A DNA stretch of 60,719 nt, filler included, from Globobulimina sp. (GCA_003354225.1; 11 parts of 11 records of this genome joined end to end with filler, not necessarily neighbours in it), one strand, 5' to 3'. Shown: positions 16,128 to 27,672, counted from the whole stretch's first letter. The notes: generated by a model not told the origin, from the letters alone. Made by a program: numbers and translations.

Positions 16128-16608
16128 TGTTTAGCTGTAAGATTGAGTTGTGAGTGAGGGTGGAAATGCAAAGGAAAATTGAGTAGTGAGTACCTAGCTA
16201 GGTTTATCTGAACATTTTAACGATATAGATATTTAGTGCTGACTCATCGTTTGCCGTTTGGTTATTTTACAGGATGGACGTTCATTTAGGGCACATTGCG
16301 ATATTTGGTGGAATTGTTGTAAATTTGCCAATGGGACTTACCTACGTGTTTGTCATACTTGAGCATGTAAATGAAGTTTGTTAAATAATAGAATTTGGAA
16401 GGAAAATAGGTTAATAATAAAATGTTAAAGGTAACATTTAACTTTTTGCTTTTCAGTTTGAAATTACTGTTTTTTACTGAAACTCTTTGAATTTACAGTT
16501 TTTTACAGNNNNNNNNNNNNNNNNNNNNNNNNNNNNNNNNNNNNNNNNNNNNTTAATTAATTAANNNNNNNNNNNNNNNNNNNNNNNNNNNNNNNNNNNN
16601 NNNNNNNN

Positions 16609-18126
16609 ATCGCTGTAATTGATTCCGTTGTCAGCCCTTGGTTGCGAAAAGGATCCGAGGAAATTTTTGGCTTCCAAGTACATTTGTGTCTTTTTCCTGG
16701 TCGTGGGGTTATATGGAATTCTGGGAAACGAATCTGTTCCAGAAACGAGACGTATATCTGTCAAATATGTGTGACTTATAAGCCACGGAGTGGTCAAGTA
16801 CGTTCCGATTCGTCGATCTGTAGATACAACAAACAAGAAGACGGTAGAAGGCAGGAAATTGTCATTAAATATGGTTTCCCTTATCGTTTGTACACCGATT
16901 TGCTTGGAAAATTCGTAGCCTACAATAAATCAAAATTTTCTAACAGAATTTGGCACAATTCCCACTAAATGTGGCCCACAGAAAATTCTGACTAAATTTG
17001 AACCATAAAATTTCAAACTTACTTTTAAGCCATTTAACCGGATAAGCGGCCGGCGATTTTTGTACCGCCTCCATTATGGACAAATGAAGTCCAGTATTCA
17101 ATCTGATTTTGCGATAGGACATAGTGATTTGGTCTAAAAATTATATAATTAGCCAAAAAATTATAGAAACGGTCAATTTACTGATAACAATTTTCTGATT
17201 TCTTTGTTCCACCGGTACTATGTCACTTCTGACCAAAAATTTTGCGACGGACGGATGCAAAGTAAACGACATGTCCACCAAAGGAAGTAGAAGTCGATTT
17301 TGATTAGTTATGGGGCTGACGATTCTACAAATCATGTCAAAATCGATCGATAGTTGGCTTTCATTGCGTCTGGCTTTGAAACCTGAAAATATACCTAGTA
17401 TAAAACAGATGCAAAAACCATCATTTCAAATAATAAAAATAAAATAGTTCTGGTGAGGATCGAACTCACTTCTTTAAACGCACTACGTTCAACGCACTAC
17501 CGGTAGTGCTACAGAACTACAGAGTTAAAAAGCAAAAACTTTGGCTTTTATAGTAGCAATCACACTTTTTCAACTTAATTTCGAAGAATATACATACCCA
17601 GATTTTCGTCAGTGGCCAAATCGAATTTTGCCATAGTATCCCGCCAAATGAAGGAAACAAAGTTGTACTGACCACCATATTCGGTTGATTTTCTGAAAAC
17701 GTTGTCCAAATAGGCGACATACGGATATGTATCAGCATTGGAAGTGACAGAAGTGGAATTTCCGACTACAACATTCACTCAACTGAACATACTCATGGCA
17801 AAATTGGCAATAGGTGCGCAGGGGGCATTTTGATCTGCGATTTGACTTCCATCTCCATTTACTACTTTGGCATTAATATGCAATCTAATACTGGATGGGT
17901 CGAGAAATCGTTCCACATCGCCTTTGATATTGAAAATGATATCGGATCCTTCAGTGTAAATGCCTGTGGGTAATATTGATTCATCATTTATTTCTTGGAT
18001 TTGTACTTGAAGTTCCTTTTTAAGGAAAAGGTTTAGTTCAGGCAAATCTACTACCGGTTGAAGTCCCAGTTGACTTGATGTATCAATGGGAGTGCCAGAA
18101 TGACGCTTTTTACCTTTAGGGGCCAT
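16609..18126 (-). CDS. Maverick/adintovirus major capsid protein (PY/hexon-like), exons 18126-17598, 17382-17182, 17133-17023, 16919-16609 (384 codons, 3'-partial), one in-frame TGA at 17779-17781
   Basis: ELNLF, IIFNIKG, FLDPSSIRL, NFAMSMFS, TYPYVAYL, WRDT, NQNRLLL, AAYPV, LPSTVFLFVV and DNGINYSD follow the Maverick MCP motif series in order after splicing. Confidence 0.85.
16920..17022 (-). other. Predicted spliceosomal intron 3 of the capsid gene (103 nt, phase 1)
   Basis: Donor A|GTAAGT, acceptor TTGTAG|GC; joins YPVKWLK-S-YEFSKQ in frame with ORF 16561-16836. Confidence 0.82.
17134..17181 (-). other. Predicted spliceosomal intron 2 of the capsid gene (48 nt, phase 1)
   Basis: Donor A|GTAAAT, branch-like GCTAAT, acceptor TTTTTAG|AC; removes an in-frame TAA; gives KIVINQITMSYRKIRL. 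Confidence 0.78.
17445..17518 (-). ncRNA. tRNA-like Pol III ncRNA nested in capsid intron 1
   Basis: AGTTCTG/CAGAACT 7-bp acceptor stem, GCAC/GTGC D-stem with GG loop, TTGAAC/GTTTAA stem with loop GTAGTGC, GTGAG-TTCGATC-CTCAC T-arm, then A and TTTT. Confidence 0.75.
17546..17552 (-). promoter_or_regulatory. TATA box (TATAAAA) at -34 to -28 of the tRNA-like RNA
   Basis: Position matches upstream TATA elements of TATA-assisted Pol III genes. Confidence 0.55.
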
Positions 18127-18566
18127 TATGTAAACAGTTTCAAAAGGTTGGTCAAAGCTTGGACTTTTTTGGTAGGCTTTTTCTGAGCAACTTTCTTTCC
18201 ACCAACTGTCTTTGGATTGATTTTCTTTTTATTACCAGCTTTATTGACAGGTTTTTTGGCTTTACTATTTTTGCCAGAAATGATGGGGATCGCTTTTTTC
18301 TTAGTTTTCGGTTTAGGAGGGGGATCCGGAGATTCTGGGGAATCGGAAGGTTCAGGGAAGGTCAAGGTTTGTACATCAGACGAAGAACAATGTCCTCCTG
18401 TCGGCAAGGGGTTGTCAAAACCGTGGCTATATTGCCAGTAGAGATTTTGGGGACCAACTGATTGGGGTGGACCAGAAAGCAGGTTACTGAACTTCTTGGC
18501 GAACTGTTGCTGGATAGTTTCGCCTGGCAATTCCGTTTGAAAGTTGTTAGACGAGTAAGTAGCCAT
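18126..18566 (-). CDS. Small Lys/Pro-rich basic protein between the capsid genes (putative DNA-binding core protein)
   Basis: 146 aa, histone-H1-like K-rich C-half; stop overlaps the MCP start (TAATG). Confidence 0.65.
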   Translation of the reverse strand: MATYSSNNFQTELPGETIQQQFAKKFSNLLSGPPQSVGPQNLYWQYSHGFDNPLPTGGHCSSSDVQTLTFPEPSDSPESPDPPPKPKTKKKAIPIISGKNSKAKKPVNKAGNKKKINPKTVGGKKVAQKKPTKKVQALTNLLKLFT

Positions 18567-18595
18567 AGCGACCGATTATCGATTGATGATTCACA

Positions 18596-19345
18596 CTAAA
18601 TGACACGCCTTTTCAATGTCATCTCTATTGCGCAATAGCTATGATTCATAAAGCGTGGGCGTGTTGCGAAATCGTTTCCAAACAGTTTTATAGGTATACG
18701 ATCGAAATGATTGACAGCAAGTTCCGTCCACCGTTCACTACCTTCGAAGGTCCATGATACGAATCTGCTGTAGGTGGTTTGTTTGGGATCAAATTGCAGC
18801 ACACGCAAAATGGGTAAAGCCCCAACAGGTGTCCACTGTGGTTTGACCAAATCGGACGAAATATACATGGGGGTCACTTTATCGTACATATCCGGCAAAA
18901 GTTTGGCCAGACTAGTTACATTGTATATCGAAGGGGCCGGTTCGAAACCAAGTATACTGGCCAAAGCTGGCGAAAATTTGACCCTGACATTGCCCGTTAG
19001 TGTCAGTTTTATTTTTCGGGTACTTTCCTGCAAACTAAGATTAACAGAAGTCGGTGTTCTGCCATTCAAGTAAGACGTTATCGCTGAAGGAATATCACAG
19101 TTTTTGGGTTCGCAATAAACGGGTCGAAAATCGGCTTCCGTAGGCCTTTTGTAATAAAGAATACAGTTTTGGTCCACATTTTCGATATTGCACTCCAAAG
19201 TAACCGATTTTATTGCGACTTGATAAGGACCAGTCAAAGACAAAGTGCCAGGCAATTTTGCTTCGAATTCGCCATTTCGCCATGATTCAGGTTCGCGGGC
19301 CATTTTTGTAGAAATAAATAAAGTAAAACTTCCATCGTCAGCCAT
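18596..19345 (-). CDS. Maverick/adintovirus minor capsid protein (penton-like)
   Basis: FTLFIS...FEAKLPGTLSLTGPYQVAIKSV; MYISSDLVKPQ...LPILRV; C-terminal MTLKRR; 8-nt overlap with the integrase stop. Confidence 0.85.
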   Translation of the reverse strand: MADDGSFTLFISTKMAREPESWRNGEFEAKLPGTLSLTGPYQVAIKSVTLECNIENVDQNCILYYKRPTEADFRPVYCEPKNCDIPSAITSYLNGRTPTSVNLSLQESTRKIKLTLTGNVRVKFSPALASILGFEPAPSIYNVTSLAKLLPDMYDKVTPMYISSDLVKPQWTPVGALPILRVLQFDPKQTTYSRFVSWTFEGSERWTELAVNHFDRIPIKLFGNDFATRPRFMNHSYCAIEMTLKRRVI

Positions 19346-20465
19346 TTCTTTTGGACAAGGGTAATTTCAATTTTTCATAAGTCGATTGATCCAACCATCT
19401 ACGAAAGTTCTTGCTGTGACCAATAAAATCGACCAAATATTCCTTTTGACCGTTTGCCAAAGTACGTTGATCGATAGTTTTATCGATGACCCTGAATTTT
19501 TCAAAGTCAGGTTCACTTGCTATTAAGTCCCGTTCATGAAAATATCCTCTTACTCGATCTCCCGCTGTGTCAACGATTTCATATGTTACAGGATAGGTTT
19601 GGCGTTGGGCGCTGATTCTATAGACAGCAGAACTGAAACCAGGCAAACTTTTCTTGTAAAATGGTGACTTTTCTGTCACATGAATTCTGACAAAGGATCC
19701 CACTGGAAATTTGGGGTTCTGAACAGCCATAGTTTTGTCCTTTAAATATTTGGCGTAACGCATATTGAATACCAGTCCTGCATTTTTCAGTTCACTCGCT
19801 TCTTCCGGACTTAGTTTGGTCACTGTATTCGGGGTTTGGTTTATAGAAGTTAGAATTTTCGGTAAAATAGTAGAAACGTCGGCCGATCTGCCCATATGGG
19901 TACTGTACTTGTTCAATTTAGCCCTAATTCGTGAAATTGCCTTTTCACTTAAAAAAGCTTTTTGAAATCGACCGTGTGTGACAGAATGTTTTGTGTCAAG
20001 ACCTTTTGCCAGCGTTTTGTATTCTGTTCCCATATCTGTTCTAATTGTCAGAGGGGTAATGCCCGAATTCTGGTCCTTTATGATCTTTTTCAGTGTATCC
20101 ACAGTAGTTTTGGCCTTTAAATTTCGTTGACATTTGGCTAACACTTTTCCGGTAAATTGATCTACGCATACTTGCATGTATTTCAATTTACTATGTTTAA
20201 ATTGCCCACTATCGCATTGCCAGTTAAGATTTTTGTTGGTGACCACAAATCTGGGGTATTGCGTATTTTTGAATTTAGGTTTTCTCGGTCTTAAATGGCG
20301 TAAATAGACGTTCTGGTTCAATAAAAATCGCCTGACTTCTTTCATCGATACAGTGGGATTGAATTTTTTGGCTGCCAGATATAGAACATTTATTCCGGAA
20401 TAACTTCCTGGCTGGTCCAAATCGAAATACAGTTTTTTCAACAAATTTTCGTTAGGTGAAGCCAT
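19338..20465 (-). CDS. Maverick-type retroviral-like (rve) integrase with C-terminal chromodomain-like region
   Basis: LYFDLDQPGSYSG; DDE triad in WQCD / RTDMGTEY / KAFLSEK; PKFPVGSFVRI; PVTYEIVD...GYFHERDL; KEYLVDFIGH...RRWL. Confidence 0.93.
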   Translation of the reverse strand: MASPNENLLKKLYFDLDQPGSYSGINVLYLAAKKFNPTVSMKEVRRFLLNQNVYLRHLRPRKPKFKNTQYPRFVVTNKNLNWQCDSGQFKHSKLKYMQVCVDQFTGKVLAKCQRNLKAKTTVDTLKKIIKDQNSGITPLTIRTDMGTEYKTLAKGLDTKHSVTHGRFQKAFLSEKAISRIRAKLNKYSTHMGRSADVSTILPKILTSINQTPNTVTKLSPEEASELKNAGLVFNMRYAKYLKDKTMAVQNPKFPVGSFVRIHVTEKSPFYKKSLPGFSSAVYRISAQRQTYPVTYEIVDTAGDRVRGYFHERDLIASEPDFEKFRVIDKTIDQRTLANGQKEYLVDFIGHSKNFRRWLDQSTYEKLKLPLSKRNG

Positions 20466-21403: not shown

Positions 21404-21880
21404 TCACTTTTCTTTTATCACGTGTGCCCATGTACCGTTATTTTGTATCCAGTCAGTCAATCGAGAATCAATATAGACTGCGAGCCAATCGCAAACGTTT
21501 CCAATTACTTGAGGTATGGCCTTTTCCAAACAATGGATTGAAAGTTTGCCGCAAAAGGCGAACAATACATAGATTTTAGCCCAATCCGAGCCACTGTCAA
21601 ATAATCTAGTATTAACCAGGTCCATAAATTCAGGAAAAGCGGTTTGTGGGGAAATTTTTAATTCAGATATCATATCAAATATCAACCCGTCCATGGTCAA
21701 TTCCTTTTCTGTGCATTTCATTCTCAAAATATAATCAACGGATTCGGGTTCAGGTAATTCTGGGCAATCTTCGAAATCGAATTCCTCTATTGAAAGTCTC
21801 CATTTAATATATTGCAAGGATGTAATACTGAGAAAAGCTTCGGGTAAATCGCCATCGAAATCAGGTACTAACGAAGCCAT
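21404..21880 (-). CDS. Bcl-2 family protein (vBcl-2-like), 158 aa, no C-terminal TM anchor
   Basis: BH4-like YIKWRL...CPELPEP; BH3-like LRMKCTEKE; BH1 LFDSGSDWAKIYVLFAFCGKL; BH2 WIQNNGTW. Confidence 0.88.
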   Translation of the reverse strand: MASLVPDFDGDLPEAFLSITSLQYIKWRLSIEEFDFEDCPELPEPESVDYILRMKCTEKELTMDGLIFDMISELKISPQTAFPEFMDLVNTRLFDSGSDWAKIYVLFAFCGKLSIHCLEKAIPQVIGNVCDWLAVYIDSRLTDWIQNNGTWAHVIKEK

Positions 21881-22140
21881 ATTTGATATCAAACAGATAT
21901 CTATAACGTTCAACAAGTGGTACTGAATCAAAAAATAATTACTATTTCTTCACTTACTTTTCTTAAATCGATCAATCAGCGACGAGCAGACAGTCTTAGG
22001 ACATTACGTAATCGATTTCGTAATATATTATAATAGACGCNNNNNNNNNNNNNNNNNNNNNNNNNNNNNNNNNNNNNNNNNNNNTTAATTAATTAANNNN
22101 NNNNNNNNNNNNNNNNNNNNNNNNNNNNNNNNNNNNNNNN

Positions 22141-23762: not shown

Positions 23763-26700
23763 ATGCAACCTCGTTACACACCGTCATCCAATACTAGTAT
23801 GAGACGAAAAAGAGCTGGTTCTTCTTCATCGAATGCGAATGATCACACAAAGACCGATTTTTGGCAATTTAAAGGTACAACACCATAGAATAACATTTTA
23901 AATATTTAAATACATTTTTGTAAACATATGATAGGTGGAAAAATTAAATTGGATAAAACTAAAACAACTGCAACAAAATCAGCAAAGTATGCATATAATT
24001 CAGCTTTTGGATCGATCTCAGTATCGAATGGTAAACACATTTGGAAATTAGAGGTGATACGTTTAACAAAGAAAATGTGCGTCGGCGTAACCTCATCGAT
24101 AAAAACATTGGATATGAACTTCCATAAACAAGACACTTATCCACATTTTGGATACACATCCGGCGCAATGAAAATATCACAAAACACGCAATATGAGAAA
24201 TATGGCATAAATATGAAGTCCGGACAAATAATCACAATCATTTTAGACTTAAATTACAGATACATCTCTTTTATGAACAACAATGACGACTTAGGAATAG
24301 CATTCAAACGCATTGAGATTGGGCCGAATATAAATTATCGATTAGCCGTCAGTTTGTTGGATAAAAATGATTCAATCAAAATTATTGGATATGGAGAGTT
24401 TTTTGATGGCGATGCCGATGATGACGAGGATGGCGATGACAAACAAGAAGAATATAATGAGTGGGATATAAAAGAAATAAAATCATGGAATGATATTATG
24501 GTTAAACAATTTATTAAAAAAACGTTGATCACTAAGACGTCGATACATGATGGAAATGATTTGAATGAGATATATTATGAAATAAATCAAAAGGAGACTC
24601 ATAAAAATACCCAGTCATTAACAAAGAAAATAAATAAATGCAAACAACATATATTTGTATTAAAAGATGAAATGATATCAAAAGCAAAGGGGTTTGAACA
24701 GGAAATGAATGATTTTAATATTTCAGTCTCACGAAAGATTAAAGCATTAACAGAGGACAATCAGCAACAATTAATTCAGCAAAAAAATGAATATAACAGA
24801 AAAAGTCAGCAAAATCAAGTAAGAATCAATAAATTTAAAATTGAATTCGAGAGAGAAAGAGAACAAAACGCAAAGTTATTGGCGGAGATAAATAAATATA
24901 AATTAGCAAAGGAGCAACTATTGAATGGCTATAATCAGTTAACGGGAAAAATAAATGAGTCAAATATACAAATTGTGACATTAACAAAACAAAATCAAGA
25001 ATTAGCTAAAAATTATTGCACAAAAAATAAATATGAGCTATTGTTAAATACATACAATGTTCACGTTAAACAGTTGGAAGATGAGATAGAAAGCAATAAA
25101 AATGAAAAAAGTCAGTTAAGGAAACAATTAAAGTTAAAGCAGAATGATATGAAAAAATTAAGCAAACAGAATGAAGAATTAATTGAAGCCAAAGATGAAT
25201 TTGAAAGTACAAACAGTCAAATATTGGATAAATACATTGGAATACAAAAAGAGAAAAATGCGTTAATAGCAGACAATGATGAATTGATTGATAAACATAA
25301 AAATGAACGGCGATTAATGGAGACACAAACAAAAAAATATAATCAATTATTACAAAATATATCTGCATTGACAGTGGAAAAGAATGAAAATGAAAACACG
25401 ATTAAAAACATGGCAGAAATATCAACAAAGGAAAAAAATGAATTTCTGAAACAAACCAACGAAATGGAAGAGAAATTAAATAATTTTGAATTAATAAATG
25501 AGGAACTTAAAGAAAATGAGAAATGTATTAAAATTGAATTAGAATCAGAGAGAAAACGATTCAATATGGCAATGGACAAAATTAAACAAGAAAATATTGA
25601 CAAATTACAGGTATTAACGGAACAGAATAAAGAGGCAAAGAATAAATTAAATAAATCGTTGGAAAATGAAAAATGTGCTACAATGGGACTAGAACAGAAA
25701 AATAATGAATATAATCAAATAGAAAAAGAGAAAAAGAAATATGAAGCAATCAACAAAAAATTAAATACAAAATCACAAGAATATTGCATAGAAATTAATG
25801 AAATAAACCAGGAAAATAATGAATTGCGGGAAAAAATAAACAAATGCTTAGAACTCGAGAAACAAAGCAAACAAATATTGAATGAATCCGATATCAAAAA
25901 TGACGATTTATTAAACAAAATCAAACAAGAAAATGCTACAAATGCCAAAGCGTATAATGACAAAGTTCAATTACTAACAAATGAAAATAAGGCATTATTA
26001 CAGAAATATAATGAGTTGGCGCAAAAATTAAAGGATAAAATTGAAGAATTAAATGAATCGCTAAAAGTTAATAAAACAATACAAAATGAGCTAGAAATAC
26101 AAAACAAGAAAAATAGTGAATTGATTCAAACTGAACAACGATGGACAAAAAAGGAAATAAACAATGCACAAAAAATCCAAACATTAACAAAACAAAATCA
26201 AGAATTAATTCAACAACAAAATGAGAATGATAATGAAAATCGAGAATTGAAACAAAAATTAAACGAAAATGAATCAATAAATAAACAATTAACTGAAAAA
26301 ATAACTAAATGCAATGCTAAAATTGAGTCATTGACTGAAAATGTGGAAAAACAATGCAATGTGGAAGAAAAACAAAAAAATGAATGGCGACAGAAAAATG
26401 AAGAATTGATTACAGAGAAAACTAAATGTAAACAGTTAACAGAAGAATTACATAAATCATTAGAAAATGAAAAGAAGCAAAATGAAAAAAGTAATCAATT
26501 ATTTCAACAAAACAATAATTTGAAAGCTACCAATCAGGAATTAAAAAATAAAAATGATGAATTATTAAATCAAATAAAACAAGAAAAAGACACAAACATT
26601 GAAAGGTATAATGAGAAGCAAGAATTAATAGAAAAAATGAACGGATTTACCGTGCAAAATAAAGAATTATTAAATAAAAACAATCAAATGAATAAAAATA

Positions 26701-27572
26701 AAAATGAATTGACAAACAAAATTGAAGAGTTAACAGACAATTTACATGGATCGCAAAAGGAGGCAGAAATGCAAAGGAAAGAAAATAGCGAACTAATTCA
26801 CAAAAATAATGAATTAATTGAGCATAAAAATAAAATAGAAATAAAAATTAAAGATAAAGACTCCGAATTGAATGATTTAAGAAAAGAAAAAAAGACAGTA
26901 ACCCAACAATTAAATCAATTGGTAGAAAATGAGAAAATTATTAAAGATGAGTTAAATGAGAATAAAGTAAGAAATGATGCATTGAGTGAAACATTGGAAG
27001 AATATGAGACAAAATTAAACAATTTAAAGCAAGAAAATGTTGATAAAAATGAACAAAATATACAACATTTAATAGATTATAACGAAAAAATTGAATTATT
27101 AACAAAGGAAAACAGAGAGTTAATGGAAACAAAGAATATTATTAATGAGAATCACGAATTATTAACGCAAGAATTGAATAAAACGATGGAAAATGAACAA
27201 TGTATAAAAAATAAACATGAGCGACTATTGGATAAATATAAAAATGATATAAAAAAATTAAGCAACGCAAAAGAGCAAAATGAATTATTGGATAAATGCA
27301 TTGCAATACAAAAAGAGAAAAACGATGAAGTGACTCGTAAGCACAAAAACGAAATGCAAGTAATGACCAAAAATAATGACAATCAACAAAATGATATAAA
27401 TGAAAAATTACATAAAATACAAGAATTGGAATGTACAATAAAGGAATTACTGAATGAGAAAAATGAATTAATTCAAATATCAAAAGAATATAAAACGAAA
27501 AGTGATGAGGATTTAAGTAATATAAAACAAGAAAATGTTGATAAAAATAATAAAATTGAATTATTAACAAAA
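23763..27572 (+). CDS. SPRY/B30.2 domain + very long coiled-coil protein, 3'-partial; short first exon
   Basis: GKHIWKLEV, MCVGV, GQIITIILDL, DLGIAF, YRLAVSL SPRY strands; about 1000 aa of E/K/N/Q heptads; G|GTACAA...ATAG|GT intron links ATG 23763 in frame. Confidence 0.8.
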
Positions 27573-27672
27573 NNNNNNNNNNNNNNNNNNNNNNNNNNNN
27601 NNNNNNNNNNNNNNNNTTAATTAATTAANNNNNNNNNNNNNNNNNNNNNNNNNNNNNNNNNNNNNNNNNNNN

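Follow-up and report, generated by a model that had tools for sequence, protein, structure and literature searches.

A tRNA-like gene with polymerase III signals in an intron of a defective Polinton-like capsid gene from Globobulimina sp.

Background

When a tRNA-shaped gene lies inside an intron of a virus-type capsid gene, does it belong to the virus, as a regulatory RNA or as a tRNA that the virus brought along, or was it supplied by the surrounding genome? The question is raised by a stretch of DNA from Globobulimina sp. (GCA_003354225.1), 60,719 nucleotides (nt) long and called the window below, in which a 74-nt tRNA-like gene with signals for RNA polymerase III (Pol III) stands in the first intron of a major capsid protein (MCP) gene of the Polinton/Maverick type. 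An original prediction, made from the sequence, had seen here a possible decoy or small-RNA precursor of a Maverick-type virus, comparable to the VA RNAs of adenoviruses. Our analysis points elsewhere: the reading we favour, to which we give about an even chance, is that the source organism has a small, dispersed family of tRNA-derived Pol III genes, one member of which was inserted secondarily in the capsid intron. All positions, including those of minus-strand features, are counted along the whole window, and the features discussed are collected in Table 1.

Results and discussion

A tRNA-like gene with a full set of Pol III signals

Two types of models recognize the gene. ARAGORN called a tRNA-Thr(agt) at 17444-17519(-), the sole tRNA in the 60.7-kb window, and the Rfam tRNA family RF00005 matched 17445-17518(-) with 45.2 bits, above its gathering score of 29. 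This match had an E-value of 1.3e-8 for 401 nt; for the whole window the value was 1.9e-6, and nothing else matched there at E<=1. A whole-window Rfam scan in gathering mode gave no matches, although the score obtained in E-value mode exceeds the gathering score; this miss is put down to speed filters, and a blank result from fast filters is unreliable for AT-rich tRNA-like genes. In its minimum free energy structure, at -24.7 kcal/mol (z=-3.67), the sequence forms the cloverleaf; none of 200 shuffled sequences folds as well. The shuffles and the whole-window E-value rule out a chance match as the source of the tRNA call.

Read along the minus strand, the sequence presents TATAAAA, 27 bases, the 74-nt cloverleaf and then TTTTATTTTTATTATTT at 17444-17428. 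An A-box-like TAGCACTACCGG and a B-box GTTCGATCC are both present within the cloverleaf, and TTTT at 17444-17441 begins a T-rich run that reaches 17428. Termination at four or more T is established for Pol III, and in some lineages an upstream TATA box accompanies type-2 genes; judged by sequence, the A box, the B box, a terminator of at least four T and the upstream TATA of such a gene are all in place. The background of TATAAA in the window is 0.86 per kb per strand, so that a chance match in the -30 zone, at about 1 in 100, is unlikely. The original prediction had listed these elements (TATAAAA at -34/-28, 74-nt cloverleaf, TTTT, A and B boxes), all of which we find on the minus strand. The check that it proposed, with ARAGORN and an Infernal-type model, returned the two calls above, and its assignment to tRNA-type genes with Pol III signals is borne out by the agreement of ARAGORN, Rfam and the signal set. 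Viral contigs contained no match to an exact 31-nt stretch of the tRNA, and none to a gapped pattern of its anticodon and T arms.

An irregular anticodon arm

The irregularity already seen in the anticodon arm (6-bp stem, loop GTAGTGC, G32/G37) is real. Two readings of the arm are possible: six pairs closing the 7-nt loop GUAGUGC, or, in ARAGORN's drawing, five pairs and one additional base separating the anticodon stem from the D stem. The arm carries G32, and G37 beside the AGU anticodon. A decoding tRNA has a 5-bp anticodon stem, a 7-nt loop, one base (position 26) before the stem, a pyrimidine at position 32 and U33, and for ANN codons, where the anticodon ends in U, A37 (t6A) is expected. 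The arm departs from this pattern by its G32, its G37 and one surplus pair or base. Of the tertiary positions conserved in decoding tRNAs (U8, A14, G18, G19 and a UUCRA T loop with C61), U8, G18, G19 and the T loop are present and position 14 is U instead of A; moreover, the D arm is a perfect 16-nt palindrome, the acceptor pair is A1-U72 and the G+C content is 46%. For cytosolic tRNAs, G37, G32, U14, A1-U72 and 46% G+C are all atypical. Because of the extra anticodon-arm base, G32, G37 beside AGU, U14 and the palindromic D arm, the RNA is probably a poor decoder or a non-decoding one.

The motif GTAGTGCGTT occurs twice in the gene, and the original prediction had deduced from this repeat that GCACTAC could pair with either copy and allow two folds. 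The repeat stands, and the second fold is predicted to be negligible: pairing GCACUAC with the second copy of the motif gives -20.7, 4 kcal/mol worse than the cloverleaf, and its key pair has a probability of 0.003 versus 0.99 for the D stem of the cloverleaf. Riboswitch-like switching between two folds was rejected on these values.

The gene occupies an intron of a defective capsid gene

The intron was delimited by alignment with related proteins. In a tblastn comparison, residues 1-156 of one relative (P0005) align at 18069-17593 and residues 155-254 at 17383-17033; the interruption has GT at 17597-17596 and AG at 17384-17383, and the tRNA begins 79 nt inside it. Once it is excised, the capsid protein is colinear with its relatives and the junction reads through without loss; therefore, the 215 nt are a true coding interruption with canonical splice signals.

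A phmmer search with exon 1, its internal TGA entered as X, retrieved 478 proteins at E<=1e-3 from 1.84 billion representatives, and the full-length members of this family measure about 430-445 amino acids (aa). P0005 is 36% identical to exon 1, and its AlphaFold2 model, built from a 46-sequence alignment (mean pLDDT 91.8), resembles Vp54 of PBCV-1 and the capsid proteins of Sputnik and mavirus, with Foldseek E-values of about 1e-15. Because of these matches, the interrupted gene is classified as a double-jelly-roll MCP of Polinton/virophage type, the modelled protein being the relative and not the window exons. Other routes were less productive: a word-based search of exon 1 against longer proteins found no relatives, the capsid N-terminus had no match in viral contigs, and the capsid-family profile met only a chance match among PDB sequences (E=0.029). 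With the MCP family and the GT..AG intron both in hand, the earlier placement of the gene within an intron of a Maverick-type capsid gene is confirmed.

This copy is decayed. A TGA at 17779-17781 lies in frame in exon 1, where relatives have a sense residue, and past exon 4, in a region that is partly masked, tblastn gave no match to the final ~100 residues of relatives. Pfam families for PolB, ATPase and protease matched 0 of 49 open reading frames (ORFs) of at least 55 aa between 14650 and 23900, and no terminal or long inverted repeats were found flanking the element. The capsid gene copy and its element are called defective because of the in-frame TGA, the missing C-terminal match and the lack of any PolB, ATPase or protease hit; only the integrase and capsid genes of the Maverick/Polinton set are present, and no complete element was encountered. 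The active Maverick-type element implied by the original prediction is not supported at this locus.

The masking is part of a wider pattern in the window: paired runs of 44 N recur about every 5.5 kb across 5440-55301, and the pair at 16509-16608 covers part of the 3' region of the capsid gene.

Divergent copies occur elsewhere in the same run

A search for public runs containing the locus turned up one only, X1, which may be the assembly's own data, and no RNA run. Contigs of X1 and of two further runs from the same sample, X2 and X3, were compared with positions 17000-18200 at 80% likeness or more, and 13 X1 records matched. X2 and X3 contain next to none of the locus and have no cover of this interval; therefore, the sample behind X1 may contain more than one organism. 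One X1 contig of 535 nt covers 17263-17797 with a single difference, so that the exon-intron(tRNA)-exon arrangement is found in reads. The spliced, joined form of the capsid intron was not seen among X1-X3 contigs over the compared interval.

Other X1 contigs carry the tRNA-like gene in a different setting. One matches only 17436-17538, with 14 differences in 103, and another only 17441-17520, with 12 differences and 2 gaps; the rest of these two contigs (425 and 916 letters) is unlike the window. Three differences, at 17474-17476, are shared by a third contig. Depth in X1 is 28.6 over 17451-17491 and 7.96 beside it, a ratio of about 3.6. Judged by these contigs, the gene occurs in three or more additional copies, about 85% identical, that do not lie in a similar capsid intron. 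The original prediction had named frequent occurrence outside Mavericks as a finding that would speak against its VA-RNA-like decoy, and these copies in at least three X1 contigs, with their unlike flanks, go part of the way there.

Compared with the cloverleaf, all 8 variable stem positions in the contig summary keep their pairing, and two pairs have changed on both sides: position 17506 together with 17497 (D-stem C-G to U-A) and position 17489 together with 17477 (anticodon-stem A-U to G-C). Since every variable stem position keeps its pairing, the family behaves as a constrained RNA rather than as drifting sequence. Its anticodon loop is less regular: the first base is G in the window and C or U in other copies, and one copy has 2 extra loop letters, the UAGUG core being unchanged among copies. 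Similarity to one copy reaches about 20 nt upstream of the tRNA, and the loose end of one copy contains ACTATAAA at the offset of the TATA box of the window gene. A retroposed Pol III transcript would carry neither upstream similarity nor a TATA box; the upstream motif suggests a promoter-bearing gene family and speaks against retroposed transcripts.

Related capsid loci lack the gene

Two related loci were available for comparison. The first (L001), a 2987-nt metagenome contig and the sole locus obtained from a single-protein metagenome scan, has a Lys-rich ORF and then the capsid gene, in the same order as the window. It contains no tRNA; its 49-nt intron (1858-1906) falls at the place of window intron 1 or within three codons of it. 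The second (L002), a 12.3-kb IMG/VR contig, has an intronless capsid ORF and likewise no tRNA. Conservation of the tRNA-like gene among relatives, on which a viral function would depend, is thus found in 0 of 2 related capsid loci.

Intron content also varies within this capsid family. The capsid region of L001 (1292-2858) has a further intron that is absent from the window, that of L002 (9198-10619) has none, and the window has three, which suggests intron gain in endogenous or nuclear Polinton-like lineages.

How the gene may have reached the intron

The favoured reading, insertion of a member of a tRNA-derived gene family, can be spelled out as follows. The inserted unit would span about 120-160 nt and comprise the upstream TATA, the 74-nt cloverleaf with its A and B boxes, and the oligo-T terminator. 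It would have entered intron 1 of an endogenous, defective Polinton/Maverick-like MCP gene secondarily, at the DNA level and in sense, and would have enlarged the intron from a usual size of about 50-100 nt to 215 nt, the longest of the three. Pol III would initiate some 30 nt downstream of the TATA box and terminate at the T4/T5 run, and trimming of this transcript by RNase P and RNase Z would then yield a 74-nt tRNA-shaped RNA. Such an RNA would have no special role in the virus-like element, its position in the intron being incidental.

Several observations weigh against this reading. Neither a target-site duplication nor a terminal repeat reaches significance around the tRNA-like unit. At the place of intron 1, an intron is also met in P0004, which at 80% identity is the closest capsid relative, and in P0001 (61%). 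The paralog data consist of summary tables of short contigs from one run of possibly mixed organisms: the copies need not share one genome, and as copy flanks are readable over at most 30 letters, the copies could lie in other, divergent virus-like elements. Finally, the pair-preserving changes argue for a working RNA, one that may have a function.

The short repeats on either side of the gene, possible traces of an insertion, do not exceed what chance would give. Shuffling reproduced an inverted repeat like the 11-nt one (17556-17546, 17405-17395) in 25 of 100 cases and a direct repeat like the 8-nt one (17539-17532, 17418-17411) in 67 of 100; both were accordingly rejected as evidence for a unit resembling a miniature inverted-repeat transposable element or for a target-site duplication. 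The head of a tRNA-derived short interspersed nuclear element (SINE) was also ruled out. SINEs resemble the present family in being tRNA-derived, in carrying A and B boxes and in occurring in more than one copy, whereas here body and tail are lacking, the terminator directly follows the head, depth only ~3.6 times that of the flanks suggests about 3-4 copies, and both upstream similarity and a TATA box are found. In this respect the original prediction, which had set the gene apart from a simple SINE insertion, was right.

If the favoured reading is true, the locus is chiefly an annotation point: in a protist lineage that has been little sampled, a tRNA-like gene is nested in an intron of an endogenous, decaying capsid gene of the Polinton-like type. 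The locus nevertheless shows that Polinton-like elements can gain spliceosomal introns (three here, at other positions in one relative, none in another) and that these introns can take up Pol III genes. The small family would be of interest in its own right, as it combines pair-preserving changes with an irregular anticodon loop of variable length.

Alternatives to a secondary insertion

Among the alternatives, the best placed is that the gene is a tRNA carried as cargo by the Polinton-like lineage, as tRNA genes are in other Polinton-like viruses, virophages and giant viruses, and that it supplies or buffers the decoding of Thr codons (ACU/ACC) for viral genes, the other copies either lying in further copies of the element or being donor genes of the host. 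We consider it unlikely, if still the most serious competitor. tRNA genes are reported in the Polinton-like virus group: one report gives 558 tRNAs from a scan of 8300 genomes of Polinton-like viruses and virophages (PMC12220804), and genome maps of some mid-size dsDNA (MELD) viruses flag predicted tRNA genes (PMC8502044). A view of this group as one without described tRNA-type genes is thus outdated. The resemblance lies in a tRNA-type gene within a Polinton-type span; in the accessible text of both sources the tRNAs are presented as genes of the viral genomes and none is mentioned in a capsid-gene intron, whereas the present gene has copies outside the element. Codon usage lends the idea some support, with ACT and ACC making up 46 of 83 Thr codons in the element ORFs versus 155 of 359 in flanking host ORFs, and Thr accounting for 7.9% of codons in the element versus 5.9% in the host ORFs, but the contrast is slight and comes from some 1000 codons. 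The intron that P0004 has at the same place is compatible with inheritance in the lineage. Against cargo stand the absence of a tRNA from both related loci and at least two copies whose flanks are unlike the capsid gene over hundreds of bases. G37 by AGU, the extra anticodon-arm base and U14 are also unlike a decoding Thr tRNA.

Somewhat less probable is that the gene is a normal, functional host tRNA-Thr(AGU) whose location within an intron is fortuitous and whose oddities are tRNA features specific to the lineage. An Rfam score above the gathering threshold and the full Pol III signal set are what such a gene would show, as are paralog substitutions that preserve pairs and leave the UAGUG core unchanged. 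Intronic tRNA genes are, moreover, common elsewhere. In C. elegans, the share of tRNA genes in introns is as expected from intron content (PMC4999229). The likeness to such cellular genes is that of a Pol III tRNA gene nested in the intron of a Pol II gene, here on the same strand; compared with them, our gene differs in lying in a defective virus-like capsid gene, in its irregular anticodon arm and in its upstream TATA. Against this reading, the copies are only ~85% alike and vary in anticodon-loop length, unlike working isodecoders, which as a rule are nearly the same; the Rfam score of 45 bits is a modest one; and G37, G32, U14, A1-U72 and the G+C content are unusual for a cytosolic tRNA. 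Mitochondrial-derived tRNAs in nuclear introns offer another parallel, since a tRNA shape within an intron could act on the pre-mRNA, and an effect on splicing is reported for them (PMC7722341); unlike those tRNAs, the present one has a canonical T loop, an AGT anticodon and no evident mitochondrial origin.

A small chance is left for a function tied to the element. The tRNA-like gene would be conserved in the Polinton-like lineage and kept in the capsid intron of intact sister elements, from which it would be released by Pol III transcription or from the spliced intron as a structured, non-decoding RNA; with its invariant UAGUG core in an enlarged loop it could tune host translation or defence, the other copies being its source in the host or copies of the element. 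Should sister elements prove to keep the gene in the same intron, it would rank as the first candidate for a Pol III regulatory RNA in viruses of the Polinton type.

The viral decoy or small-RNA precursor of the original prediction, coming from the Maverick-like element and modulating host defence in the manner of VA RNAs, EBERs or TMERs, fares worst of all, and we think it very unlikely. In its favour are the TATA box that accompanies the tRNA-type promoter, an appearance unlike that of a decoding tRNA and a location inside a virus-like element; no paper in the literature searched linked polintons with VA RNA, and such an RNA would be new if real. The MHV68 TMERs, adenovirus VA RNAs and EBV EBERs share with the present gene a Pol III tRNA-type internal promoter in virus-derived sequence. 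TMERs consist of a tRNA-like head joined to pre-miRNA hairpins, and VA RNAs and EBERs, of about 160-170 nt, are not cloverleaves; here, by contrast, a plain 74-nt cloverleaf is followed immediately by its terminator, with neither the attached hairpins of a TMER nor the long imperfect stem of a VA RNA. The decoy has further against it that the gene is not conserved among relatives (0 of 2 loci) and has copies with unlike flanks outside a capsid context, that the element copy is defective and that the alternative fold put forward for the RNA is predicted hardly to form. A TMER-like precursor was rejected on architecture, the terminator starting at the next base after the cloverleaf.

Neighbouring genes and other features

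Table 1. Positions of the tRNA-like gene, the capsid gene and adjacent element ORFs in the window
Feature	Position	Strand	Basis or remark
tRNA-like gene (nominal Thr, anticodon AGT; internal A and B boxes)	17445..17518	-	RF00005, ARAGORN, minimum free energy cloverleaf
TATAAAA at -34/-28 from first tRNA base (17518)	17546..17552	-	sequence reading
T-rich run (T4, then T5) right after discriminator base	17428..17444	-	predicted Pol III terminator by sequence
MCP exon 1, in-frame TGA 17779-17781	17598..18126	-	translation; phmmer relatives
MCP intron 1, 215 nt, GTATGT..TTTCAG, phase 1, tRNA-like gene in sense	17383..17597	-	tblastn gap, colinear alignment
MCP exon 2	17182..17382	-	tblastn, sequence reading
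MCP intron 2, 48 nt, GTAAAT..TTTTAG	17134..17181	-	frame continues, matches L001 protein
MCP exon 3	17023..17133	-	sequence reading and tblastn
MCP intron 3, 103 nt, GTAAGT..TTGTAG	16920..17022	-	sequence reading; colinear with relatives
MCP exon 4, enters masked 16509-16608	16609..16919	-	tblastn
Lys-rich ORF upstream of MCP	18129..18575	-	same gene order in L001
Penton-like ORF (minor capsid?), 248 aa	18599..19342	-	no Pfam match; Atlas viral hypotheticals
rve-type integrase, 374 aa, open frame	19341..20462	-	PF00665 E=1.4e-7, 32.1 bits

The integrase score in Table 1 falls just below the curated PF00665 cut-off of 32.6 bits; a relative of 374 aa, 81% identical to the window integrase, carries the domain. 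For the penton-like ORF, Atlas features matched hypothetical proteins of viruses, one row naming the minor capsid protein V18/19 of Sputnik; we take this as a lead only, and a comparison with viral contigs gave no match.

The genes on the flanks belong to the host and encode MatE transporters, a myotubularin and a dihydroxy-acid dehydratase. For the myotubularin, the best match among named homologs is 58% identical and comes from the foraminifer genus Ammonia, so that a rhizarian protist is the probable host. Because no PolB was found and a flanking host gene has this foraminiferal homolog, the label of adintovirus, an animal-tropic group, that the original prediction had attached to the capsid gene is unfit.

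About 940 nt upstream of the integrase and on the same strand lies an ORF of 181 aa, at 21407-21949(-), of the Bcl-2 family (PF00452, E=9.3e-16; Bcl-xL in the PDB, E=3.6e-19), whose nearest Atlas clusters are Bcl-2, mostly chordate. Adintoviruses are reported to carry Bcl2 homologs (PMC8502044). Standing next to a Polinton-like module in a genome with rhizarian-looking host genes, the present homolog may be cargo of the element or the result of a transfer. Further on, an open frame of 1236 aa at 23910-27620(+), in a strongly AT-skewed stretch of 24-28% G+C, has an N-terminal SPRY domain; it probably belongs to the host, the body of the protein being of low complexity.

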